Part shown: positions 12,001-15,000 of the stretch, piece by piece | Position numbering within the stretch: the first letter of the stretch is position 1 | Layout of the letters: each line of letters begins with the position of its first letter | Virus record (IMG/VR): IMGVR_UViG_2529292985_000022 | Source of the DNA: a virus | Lineage: Duplodnaviria; Heunggongvirae; Uroviricota; Caudoviricetes | Direction: 5' to 3' (one strand) | DNA: 21,752 bases | Program-made: the position numbers

Positions 12001-15000
12001 GGGGGCAAAGGGAGATACGGGAGCTGCAGGCCCGGCAGGCGCACAGGGGCCAAAAGGTGACAAAGGCGATCCGGGAGTGGCTGGACCAGCAGGTCCGGCA
12101 GGTGCGCCGGGGCCGAAAGGCGATAAAGGTGATCCGGGAGTAGCAGGTCCAGCAGGTCCGGCGGGGCCACAGGGACCGAAGGGAGACATAGGAGCCTCCG
12201 GGCAAGGAACAGAACTGCTTACTACTGCCAATACATGGACTCAGGCACAAACTTTTAATGGTGGTATTAATGGCAATTTGACGGTGACCGGAAACGGCTC
12301 ATTTAACGATATTCAGATCCGTTCGGATAAACGCAACAAGCGAAATCTGGTAAAACTGGATAATGCGTTAGATCGTCTGGAGGCACTTACTGGTTATCTT
12401 TACGAGATACAGTACTCTGCCGACGGTTGGCAAACGTCGGTTGGTTTAATTGCTCAGGATGCACAAAAAGCATTGCCTGAACTGGTAACTGAAGACGCAG
12501 ACGTTATATCTGGTGAAAAACGTCTGCGTCTTAACTACAACGGCATAATTGCATTGTTAGTCGAGGGCTTTAAAACACTTCGTCATGAGATTAAAGAACT
12601 CCGGGAGAAGTAAACGACAGCTGTTGTAGTTTCTGGTTTCTACTGAATTTAAATTGTGGGGTGACACTCACCCCACGCATTCAGAAGGGGGAGATGAGAT
12701 GGGGGTAACATCGGGATGGGTAGGCTCTTCGGCTAAGAGCGAAACAGGTGAGCAGTGGATGGGAGCCGCCGGAACCAAACTGGGACTGAGTAAACCTTTT
12801 ATGATGAGCCAAATGGTTGGGCGAACTATGGGCTGTAAAATTGCAACTGAGTACTATAAATGGAAATCCTCTGACAAGGTTGATAACTGGGGCGCAGTTG
12901 GCGCTGACTGGCCTTTAGAAGAAAAAAGTAAAGGTACAATTACAAACGCCGCAAGCTGCGGATCAGGGAGGCTGGTAGGGGCTGTCGTTACACTTTCTCA
13001 CTTTTTGACGAACTCTACACCGACAGCTGCTGTTTATTTAGCCGGTGGTAAAGCAGGTAACATCACCGTAAACGTAGGTGGTGCTACACAAACCATGATT
13101 TATCAGGGCGTTGTTAGTGGGTTCCAGTATTACTGGTCAGGTTCTGTTAGTTCCGCTTTCGTGGAGGCAATGAAAAAGACGGGAGTACCCCAGGATCTAA
13201 AAATTAGTTAAATGGTAAATAAATAATTTTAAAAACTTCACGTTCTACATACCGGAGACGCCGGATATATAGGATATTGTTTTAAGTTGCCAGAGAAATT
13301 TTTCCGGACGGATGCTGATAATAATGATGTGCCAATGACGGCAGCATCATGGATGGCACTGAGTGAAGCGACAGAGCAGGCGATGTTTGCGAAGGGAGTG
13401 GAGATTAATACACGGCAGTTGCAGATGAAAGCCGAGGTTGAGGCGCTGACAGACCTGAAGGCGATCCGCAGTTATGTTGTCGGATGGCCTGCTGTCTGAA
13501 TAAAAAAACGGGACCACGACCAGTCCCGGAACCATGAGTTTTAGGGTATTAGTTTGTTATCATAGTTAGCGTGCTAAGTATGCCATGTCAGGTTGATTAG
13601 TGAAGTGATGTTGTTCGCATTTTTGCACGGCGGAGAATATTCAGATTTTTGGAAATCCATATTTTTCCCGTGCGCGATTACATGCTTCATTTACGATGCT
13701 ATTTTCGCCGGACATTGCGAATTCCCTGCATGTGGACGGTTTTTGTAAACAGAGCAATATGCGTTTTCTCCGGGGGGGGCCGGCAAGAGCGCCACATCGG
13801 GGATTTTTCTGATTGGTGCCGCGCATACAGCGATGAAAAGGAGATATTTGCTCAGTGAGACTGACCGAAACCTTTCCGCCAGCATCGTCAGCTTCTGCCC
13901 AGTAAAAAGAGACGCGGAAAATGCACAACAGGCACCACACGTCATGCATGGATTCAGATTGCTCATAATTCACCAGTACAGCTATAAATCGTAAAGAGAA
14001 CAGCGGTACATCGTATGTAAGAACGTACCGCGGCTGGCTGGTGAACTTCCGATAGTGCGAGTATTGAATGATTTCCATCCGTTACAGATTTTACGTGCTA
14101 ATTAGTGAACAAACCACTCGTCAGCAGACTCCCAGGTATCTTTCAGAGTTTCCTGAACAAAAGTTTTAGCTGAATCTTTATCGGCGGTGCGCGTAACAGA
14201 AAGGCCATCGTTGCTGGTAGCTTTTACGATCACCTCTACATCGTCATAACGTTTACTGATGCGTCGGGTTAATTCTTCCTTTAACGCATCCACAGCACCG
14301 GTTGGCATTTTAGTCATTTTTTCTTTGGCTATGCAGATTTCAATACGCATAAAAGTCCCTCTACACTGTGTTTGTATACAGTATCAATTTTAACTGTATG
14401 GATAAACAGTATCAAGGGTGAAGGAAAGTGATTTTTTGGGGCATGCATGGGGCAAAAATATTTGTTGTGGGGCATTTTGGGGCATGATTGGGACACTTTG
14501 TTACATATGAACTTTGCCGATTTTTATATGACATGGAAATACAACGCTTTGATTCTTCTAAATAAAAAACATGCTCTTGGGCGTTCTTTAGTGATTTTTA
14601 AAAATTCCGTATCACGCAGTTAAAGTGGCGGGCATACTCTTCAAGGCTGGTGATCCCCAACCGCACCCATTTAGGATGCGACCATTGCGGTAGACCGATG
14701 TAAATCATAACGCGTGAAGGATCTCTTCCACGCTACGCACACGGGCGATGCGCGGGTAGATATGATTAATGCTGTTATTGTGTTGCTCGGCGCTGGCGGC
14801 ACTACAGGCGTCTTCGGCAATCACCAGATTAAAGCCAAGTTCCCAGGCATTGCGGGCGGTGGATTCAACACCGATATTGGTCGAGATCCCACATAACACT
14901 ATTGTATCGATACCTCGGCGGCGCAGTTGCAACTCCAGATCCGTACCGTAAAACGCACCCCACTGACGTTTGATGATTTCGATATCACTGTCAGTTGCAC

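Follow-up and report, generated by a model that had tools for sequence, protein, structure and literature searches.

The DinI-like gene at the right end of a yecE prophage

The window, i.e. the whole stretch of DNA analysed in this study, comprises 21,752 nt (21.7 kb; IMG/VR virus record IMGVR_UViG_2529292985_000022) and includes the right end of an E. coli prophage of lambda-like type with yecE as its insertion site. By blastn, positions 751-1191 of the K-12 yecD-yecE locus align to window positions 15053-14613, and related prophages carry the name 'yecE' insertions. A cassette with a small gene for a DinI-like protein lies about 200 bp away from attR, where prophage and host DNA meet. Tail genes with the opposite direction of transcription are located upstream of this cassette, and the immunity region of the prophage falls outside the window. 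The following features were assigned:

14613..14704, minus strand: first host DNA, attR (5′ part of yecE, then yecD), from blastn to K-12
14415..14410, minus strand: predicted -35 hexamer TTGATA, from a consensus scan (TTGACA in most relatives)
14411..14392, minus strand: LexA box 2, TACTGTTTATCCATACAGTT, 41 nt from the ATG, filling the promoter spacer
14392..14387, minus strand: predicted -10 hexamer TAAAAT, from a consensus scan (TAAAAA in relatives)
14383..14364, minus strand: LexA box 1, TACTGTATACAAACACAGTG, 13 nt from the ATG, over the transcription start predicted near 14380
14361..14357, minus strand: Shine-Dalgarno motif GAGGG, read from the sequence, 6 nt before the ATG of the dinI-like gene
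14350..14102, minus strand: dinI-like gene, a paralogue of chromosomal dinI (ATG start, 82 aa plus TAA stop)
14003..14031, minus strand: hairpin behind dinI with broken U-run, a homologue of the terminator in mEp460
13641..13966, minus strand: ykgJ-like pseudogene with three frameshifts relative to K-12 YkgJ
13528..13509, minus strand: terminator-like stem-loop with T-run, which would stop any read-through transcript

The first-pass annotation had proposed a prophage-borne DinI-family protein of 82 aa, encoded as accessory cargo next to the attachment site, and this description was borne out. The protein matches Pfam PF06183 over the full profile (positions 1-63 of 63; E 1.1e-19; 70.9 bits at a cut-off of 24.2) and PHROG 189 'RecA filament binding protein DinI' with E 5.7e-31. 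It is 46% identical to K-12 DinI, and its residues 1-81 match PDB entries 1GHH/7YWA with E 3.7e-13. With the NCBIfam DinI equivalog NF007893 it reaches 73 bits, which is below the cut-off of 111, and it is therefore a paralogue and not an orthologue of DinI; RefSeq names it 'DinI-like family protein'. Prophage origin is evident from the tail genes upstream and from an identical protein in phage mEp460, the position next to the attachment site from yecE/yecD homology starting at 14613, and the cargo character from the self-contained layout of the cassette. The features expected of a moron were found, namely an own predicted promoter and terminator, a site between late genes and att, and varying contexts; the promoter-dinI-terminator unit also follows int in mEp460 and recurs in a dusA prophage. 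Base composition was rejected as a mark of foreign cargo, as the GC content of the cassette (43-46%) is not distinctive. The prophage as a whole looks defective, judging from an in-frame TGA in J and the frameshifted ykgJ.

Cryo-EM of K-12 DinI revealed RecA contacts by a hydrophobic pocket (L13, L21, W71, W77, F78) and an acidic patch (E24, E69, D76), and DinI and lambda CI have the RecA groove in common (PMC9926225). In the window protein, the hydrophobic contacts align to M15, L23, W73, W79, and F80, and the acidic ones to E26, D71, and E78. All eight positions are thus kept, five of them identical and three conservative. Since the contact residues are conserved and the groove is common to DinI and lambda CI, it seems reasonable from the sequence that the DinI-like protein may tune RecA-dependent cleavage.

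Two LexA boxes in the promoter and the region downstream of dinI

The two tandem CTGT-N8-ACAG boxes reported upstream of the gene are present exactly at 14364..14383 and 14392..14411. Their cores (14366-14381 and 14394-14409) are the only occurrences of CTGT-N8-ACAG in the window, for which shuffles expect 0.29, and both boxes are identical to the LexA consensus TACTGTATATATATACAGTA at 16 of 20 positions. LexA motif scoring, which had been suggested as a check, supported both. With a matrix of approximate heterology type built from known E. coli sites, box 1 scored 3.66 and box 2 scored 3.37; these values are not published heterology indices, and the Gifsy-2 box, for example, scored 2.33 here versus 3.92 as published. 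With the same approximate matrix, no other site in the window scored 12 or lower, and none of 200 shuffles contained any site scoring 4 or lower.

As had also been claimed, the boxes overlap the promoter region. The consensus scan predicted a sigma-70-like promoter, TTGATA-17 nt-TAAAAT, which overlaps box 2. Box 2 takes up the space between the two hexamers; box 1 starts 4 nt past the predicted -10. The gap between the boxes is 8 bp and the centre-to-centre distance 28 bp (27-29 bp in relatives). Cooperative LexA binding is documented for overlapping colicin boxes; the window boxes, 8 bp apart, neither overlap nor abut as in the colicin type. Nothing in the analysis supports the cooperative repression that the first-pass annotation predicted. 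A divergent plus-strand promoter under control of the palindromic boxes was rejected, as the promoter scan predicted none.

Downstream of dinI, the hairpin at 14003..14031 is probably a leaky terminator; its U-run is degraded in the window copy, so that the termination efficiency is uncertain. Between dinI and the remnant of ykgJ, a stretch of 135 bp, the minus strand contains no separate ORF of at least 20 aa. Two ORFs of 91 aa and 145 aa further downstream were rejected as an intact second gene of an operon: they had no match in Pfam, NCBIfam or PHROG, and in tblastn the match of K-12 YkgJ is divided between two reading frames, showing that they are two frames of one ykgJ pseudogene. The ykgJ frameshift states differ among relatives, and in O104:H4 the ykgJ-like gene is annotated as frameshifted. 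A structured RNA was rejected as well, since the whole window is without Rfam match at gathering thresholds; overall, the region after dinI shows no stronger folding than shuffles (z = -1.46).

Distribution of the cassette and comparison with known systems

Of 5426 complete E. coli genomes, 1675 (about a third) carry the 319-bp dinI cassette, with up to seven copies in a genome and 3356 copies altogether. All 80 viral loci retrieved have the DinI-like ORF in intact form with 99-100% identity, and both LexA boxes are kept in all 62 related IMG/VR viral loci; L085-L087, PhiR12_5, and RM14516 also carry both. Among 24 distinct upstream variants, a single CTGG is the only departure from the CTGT/ACAG cores, while the flanks and the spacer between the boxes vary; the T of the -10 hexamer at 14387 occurs only in the window (A-to-T change). 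In VT1-Sakai, one half-site of box 2 is CTGG. In BP-4795, box 2 has decayed to CTGG...ACAA, and it is thus dispensable in at least one lineage. Elsewhere in the Enterobacterales, dinI genes have a single LexA box at a distance of about 19 bp to the ATG; the two-box layout is limited to this E. coli/Shigella prophage clade.

The closest known counterparts are mEp460 gp21 'RecA filament binding protein DinI' (NC_019716), which is 100% identical to the window protein, and VT1-Sakai H0001 (AP000400) with 95% identity. These phages and many Stx1/Stx2 phages share with the window the cassette, the two-box promoter layout, and the position at the tail-fibre/att end. The window copy differs from its phage relatives only trivially (TTGATA for TTGACA, -10 TAAAAT, degraded terminator U-run). 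In mEp460, dinI is directly followed by a clean terminator and a tail-fibre gene. In the public phage records, just one box is marked: AP000400.1 annotates the box 1 homologue as 'putative SOS box', plus a promoter, and the stretch of box 2 and the -35 hexamer is labelled only 'promoter' in the mEp460 and VT1-Sakai records.

Chromosomal K-12 DinI (b1061; PDB 1GHH, 7YWA) resembles the window protein in family, size, RecA contacts, and a LexA-boxed promoter. However, the promoter of chromosomal dinI contains a single box, ACCTGTATAAATAACCAGTA, at a distance of 19 nt from its ATG; the two boxes of the window, at 13 and 41 nt, are stronger. The prophages Gifsy-1, -2, and -3 also carry a dinI homologue (44% identical to the window protein) directly behind a strong LexA box. 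In Gifsy, this is one box at 19 nt, the gene is located in the nin region, and an antirepressor gene and irsA follow downstream, whereas the window gene lies beside att and is accompanied by neither. The LexA-boxed dinI homologues of Gifsy accumulate upon treatment with mitomycin C, and nalidixic acid induces them 5-23-fold; their non-polar deletions had no significant effect on induction, and the Gifsy repressors are not cleaved via RecA (PMC3121763, PMC8072944). The deletion result therefore does not test competition with CI. In CFT073, the prophage dinI-like gene c0943, a putative relative of the window clade, co-varies with sulA, umuD, and recN.

Another related protein is Tum of coliphage 186, a LexA-controlled antirepressor of about 146 aa with a DinI-like C-terminal half. 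The window protein covers positions 71-149 of the 151 positions of PHROG 189, the part of the profile in which longer members of Tum type have their C-terminal half. It is thus a bare 82-aa DinI domain lacking the N-terminal antirepressor half of Tum, with promoter and operators immediately upstream. Like the window promoter, the multi-operator SOS promoters of recN, lexA/dinF, umuDC, ydjM, and colicin genes carry more than one LexA site. Multiple sites are a minority design among E. coli SOS promoters (4 of 31) and occur in about 75% of colicin genes. A literature search for studies of DinI from E. coli prophages, or of the two boxes, yielded no direct work, only passing speculation.

Proposed function and regulation of the cassette

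We consider it likely that the locus is a self-contained, SOS-controlled DinI moron, which is locked by LexA and whose late-made product binds the RecA groove and thereby damps the SOS response and prophage induction. Such a cassette would consist of an own sigma-70 promoter, two LexA operators, the gene for the DinI paralogue, and a hairpin terminator. Three other explanations were weighed against this reading. Box 2 might be a promoter spacer that resembles a LexA site by chance, leaving box 1 as the sole operator as annotated in VT1-Sakai. The 'promoter' label in the phage records would fit this, as would the CTGG half-site of VT1-Sakai and the decayed box of BP-4795. Yet CTGG half-sites are present in accepted E. 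coli LexA boxes such as that of ruvA, box 2 scores as well as box 1 (3.37 vs 3.66) with the same 16/20 agreement with the consensus, and its cores are kept in 62 of 62 loci. As a complete CTGT-N8-ACAG would arise in a 17-nt spacer by chance with a probability of only about 1e-5, we regard a chance resemblance as very improbable. Even less credible is a Gifsy-type SOS operon (dinI, a small antirepressor gene, irsA), in which the promoter would serve an inducing antirepressor and dinI would be a passenger. The ribosome-binding region before the ATG is indeed similar, with GTAGAGGGA preceding both Gifsy-2 dinI and the window gene. However, Gifsy-2 GftA and IrsA gave no tblastn match in the whole window, and the 135-bp gap after dinI holds a terminator-like hairpin and no ORF of at least 20 aa. 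Furthermore, the next gene is the ykgJ pseudogene, and in mEp460 the terminator and tail-fibre gene follow dinI directly. An equation of irsA with the ykgJ-like gene was rejected, since IrsA is an unrelated 200-aa protein and YkgJ matches no Gifsy record. The antirepressor operon is thus already largely refuted.

The last alternative, to which we give somewhat more weight but which we still hold to be improbable, is that the LexA-regulated cassette has no selected function and persists in a defective prophage because it is recent. The apparently defective state of the prophage, with its in-frame TGA in J and frameshifted ykgJ, and the Gifsy dinI deletions without induction phenotype speak for a neutral passenger. 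Against it, the ORF has stayed intact at 99-100% identity in 80 viral loci next to a ykgJ that decays in several ways, and both operator cores are kept across the 24 upstream variants. That 1675 of the 5426 genomes carry the cassette, with as many as seven copies, and that it occurs in different prophage contexts also argues against neutrality.

For the SOS-controlled moron, the following course of events can be proposed. The analysis itself demonstrates what the gene is, and the sequences, location and conservation of the operators; LexA occupancy, timing, RecA binding and the influence on induction are inferred. In undamaged cells, both operators would be occupied by LexA dimers. Either box alone, box 2 between the hexamers or box 1 over the start, should exclude RNA polymerase, so that the promoter would be doubly locked. 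As both boxes are strong, release should require a deep or lasting fall of LexA, i.e. late SOS. The 82-aa product would then bind the groove of RecA-ssDNA filaments like chromosomal DinI, and should stabilise the filament while competing with UmuD and CI-type phage repressors, the slower substrates of the coprotease. Late SOS outputs would thereby be dampened or delayed, including the induction of this prophage and of co-resident lambdoid prophages. Whether induction would rise or fall does not follow from the sequence, because DinI acts on filaments in two ways: it stabilises them and also blocks their groove.

The DinI cassette is very common and of an already recognised kind. It adds little as a sequence finding, as annotation of the VT1-Sakai sequence already made the gene, the SOS box, and the position public, and experiments on the Salmonella Gifsy prophages have shown that LexA controls their dinI homologues. 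A modest new point is apparently the presence of two strong boxes in the E. coli/Shigella clade versus one in the rest of the family. A more far-reaching and rather doubtful interpretation is that lambdoid prophages of E. coli/Shigella have evolved the double operator as an adaptation specific to their clade, which would keep the phage DinI silent until SOS is late and deep. The protein would afterwards flood the RecA groove in competition with CI-type repressors and, given up to seven copies in a genome besides the chromosomal gene, set a dose-dependent threshold for the induction of Stx and other co-resident prophages; if true, this would represent an inter-prophage control of induction and toxin release. 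If phage DinI modulates RecA-dependent repressor cleavage, its copy number and regulation would influence prophage inducibility by DNA-damaging antibiotics. The inducibility of Shiga-toxin and other lambdoid prophages would then be affected, which would be clinically relevant for EHEC.

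LexA boxes and predicted promoter of the dinI-like gene

The following features were assigned around the dinI-like gene:

up to about 13500: tail genes (tape measure, M-L-K-I genes, J, lom, collagen-repeat tail fibre, Gp38-like adhesin, DUF4376 protein)
13528..13509, minus strand: good terminator-like site
13641..13966, minus strand: ykgJ-like pseudogene, three frameshifts relative to K-12 YkgJ
14003..14031, minus strand: hairpin after dinI, homologous to the clean rho-independent terminator of phage mEp460, U-run degraded (UGUUCUCUUUACGAUUU)
14350..14102, minus strand: dinI-like ORF, 82 aa, ATG start preceded by GAGGG
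14383..14364, minus strand: LexA box 1 (20-mer, gene's strand), TACTGTATACAAACACAGTG, consensus match 16/20
14411..14392, minus strand: LexA box 2 (20-mer, gene's strand), TACTGTTTATCCATACAGTT, consensus match 16/20
14415..14387, minus strand: promoter predicted by consensus scan, −35 TTGATA (14415..14410), 17-nt spacer, −10 TAAAAT (14392..14387)

The first-pass annotation had proposed two tandem CTGT-N8-ACAG operators, and the sites at 14366-14381 and 14394-14409 are indeed the only two of this form in the 21.7-kb window (0.29 expected from shuffles). The LexA motif scoring suggested there was performed with an approximate matrix, based on a set of 21 operators of E. coli and differing in its values from the published heterology index, and gave 3.66 for box 1 and 3.37 for box 2, comparable to recA, sulA, and yebG. 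With this matrix, no further site scoring below 12 was found elsewhere in the window, and none of 200 shuffled sequences contained a site scoring 4 or less.

The proposed overlap with the promoter region was also found for the predicted promoter: box 2 fills the spacer completely and touches each hexamer, and box 1 begins 4 nt past the −10 hexamer and thus lies over the start site expected near 14380. A LexA dimer on either box alone should exclude RNA polymerase from this predicted promoter. The records of mEp460 and VT1-Sakai annotate a promoter on the homologous stretch; in the VT1-Sakai GenBank record, the homologue of box 1 is a 'putative SOS box' and the box 2 stretch is the 'putative promoter of H0001 and H0002 genes'. 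Among 24 upstream variants, only the window copy carries T at 14387, the last −10 position (TAAAAT; TAAAAA elsewhere), and its −35 is TTGATA where TTGACA is the common allele, so that its promoter strength may differ from that of the common allele.

The one part of the earlier interpretation that gains no support here is cooperative repression. SOS promoters usually have one box; among 31 E. coli promoters, several non-overlapping boxes are present only in recN, umuDC, lexA/dinF, and ydjM, and it is in colicin genes, whose boxes overlap, that LexA is known to bind cooperatively (PMC11332147). Here, in contrast, the 20-mers are separated by 8 bp, with a centre-to-centre distance of 28 bp (about 2.7 helical turns; 27 and 29 bp among natural relatives), and nothing supports a direct dimer-dimer contact. 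Independent filling of both boxes would in itself make control tighter and steeper.

Protein identity and predicted action on RecA

Assignment of the 82-aa product to the DinI family was confirmed by a full-profile match to Pfam DinI (PF06183; E 1.1e-19), by PHROG 189 'RecA filament binding protein DinI' (E 5.7e-31), by the solved DinI structures 1GHH and 7YWA (E 3.7e-13), and by 46% identity to K-12 DinI (NC_000913). Its score against the NCBIfam equivalog for chromosomal DinI is 73 bits, below the cut-off of 111, and it is thus a paralogue of the chromosomal protein; RefSeq names it 'DinI-like family protein'.

In cryo-EM, one DinI per two RecA protomers lies in the filament groove, with RecA F203 in a pocket formed by DinI L13, L21, W71, W77, and F78, and with DinI E24, E69, and D76 opposite RecA K232, R243, and K245; LexA, UmuD, and lambda CI engage the RecA elements contacted by DinI (PMC9926225). 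All eight corresponding positions (M15, L23, W73, W79, F80, E26, D71, and E78) are identical or conservative in the alignment to K-12 DinI, so the protein is expected to bind RecA filaments like DinI. It would then stabilise these filaments and occupy the site needed by coprotease substrates. Since operator-bound LexA is not cleaved (PMC9578287), two strong operators should silence the gene until deep LexA depletion, and the protein would appear later than chromosomal DinI, at the time of UmuD and CI cleavage. Most likely, the net effect would be to damp or delay late SOS outputs including prophage induction, although sequence does not predict the sign for induction; Stx-phage papers, which mention the gene only in passing, guess that it limits induction.

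In Salmonella, dinI homologues of the Gifsy prophages stand at the head of a LexA-controlled operon. Gifsy DinI accumulates after mitomycin C, and damage control is lost upon replacement of the LexA box; dinI deletions had no induction phenotype, but Gifsy repressors are not RecA substrates (PMC3121763). Nalidixic acid induces the Gifsy dinI genes 5-23-fold, and each of them has a single box, at 19 nt (PMC8072944). Expression of a dinI-like CFT073 prophage gene, possibly but not necessarily of this clade, co-varies with sulA, umuD, and recN (PMC2817434). Our literature search found no paper on what the E. coli element does and none describing its double operator. A Gifsy-type antirepressor operon was rejected for the window: GftA and IrsA have no homologue there, and no ORF lies between dinI and ykgJ.

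Genomic position and state of the prophage

Homology to K-12 yecE/yecD starts at 14613, and catalogues list related prophages as insertions in yecE. This makes the cassette the final phage gene ahead of attR, some 200 bp away from the prophage/host junction, which agrees with the earlier placement next to the attachment site, and its transcription runs against the late genes. Between the dinI promoter and the junction, five copies of TGGGGCA(T)/GGGACA at 14437..14495 probably represent the P' arm-type sites that integrase binds; the motif also occurs in tandem repeats upstream of dinI in VT1-Sakai and BP-4795. In mEp460 and in a dusA prophage of E. coli RM14516, the cassette lies directly 3' of the integrase gene, whose stop codon overlaps the dinI −35, indicating that it moves as a unit between integration modules.

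Downstream, the broken U-run suggests read-through into the ykgJ remnant, up to the terminator-like site. As three frameshifts are needed to read it like K-12 YkgJ, this remnant is a pseudogene, leaving dinI as the unit's only intact product. Related prophages show several differing frameshift states; in the phage collection, all ykgJ matches in E. coli phage records are fragments, and only an Acinetobacter phage record yields a match of nearly full length (96% of the query).

The tail-tip/host-specificity gene J (6849..10322, plus strand) contains an in-frame TGA at 8196..8198, splitting it into same-frame parts of 449 and 707 aa, so the prophage is probably defective for tail assembly. In the region 11048..12613 and 12654..13211 (plus strand), a tail fibre with long Gly-X-Y collagen-like repeats is followed by an ORF with the N-terminal domain of the T-even Gp38 adhesin (PF21721) and a DUF4376 ORF, which makes this host-range module a mosaic. 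Host yecD is split by a 1448-bp insertion (15054..16501) encoding a 398-aa IS110-family-like transposase (16275..15079, minus strand), with K-12 yecD aligning to 15053-14613 and 17252-16502 at its two sides.

Distribution and conservation of the double operator

Of 5426 complete E. coli genomes, 1675 carry the 319-bp cassette (coverage at least 80%), with up to 7 copies per genome. Phages mEp460, SKA5, and PhiR55_1 encode the identical protein, and many Stx1/Stx2 phages 92-95% versions. Among 80 IMG/VR loci whose protein is 99-100% identical, 62 extend into the upstream DNA, and both boxes are present in every one of these. The CTGT/ACAG cores are unchanged across the 24 upstream variants, except for CTGG in the VT1-Sakai lineage; substitutions fall in the box flanks, the inter-box spacer, and further upstream.

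This conservation bears on two other readings. That box 2 is a mere promoter spacer is unlikely in view of its score and conservation. The cassette is possibly a neutral passenger of a prophage in which J carries a nonsense codon and ykgJ has decayed, but this fits poorly with an ORF that is intact and nearly identical, and with operator cores that are kept, in many contexts.

When one genome was scanned for each GTDB species, a single box roughly 19 nt ahead of the ATG was seen at 68 of 80 DinI loci (all 41-58% identical), as in K-12 dinI and Gifsy-2 dinI, whereas the double layout at 13 and 41 nt was found in only 3 E. coli/Shigella prophage copies. Both boxes are kept in PhiR12_5 (71% identical), Klebsiella phage P18-100 (68%) has one, and in BP-4795 (60%) the second is decayed. 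The second operator is therefore clade-specific and can be dispensed with.

The predicted identity, operators, promoter overlap, and att proximity thus all hold at the sequence level, and the earlier interpretation, apart from cooperativity, is supported. The cassette is an ordinary, very widespread, and already annotated kind of prophage cargo, and its clade-specific second operator adds only a little to the known picture.
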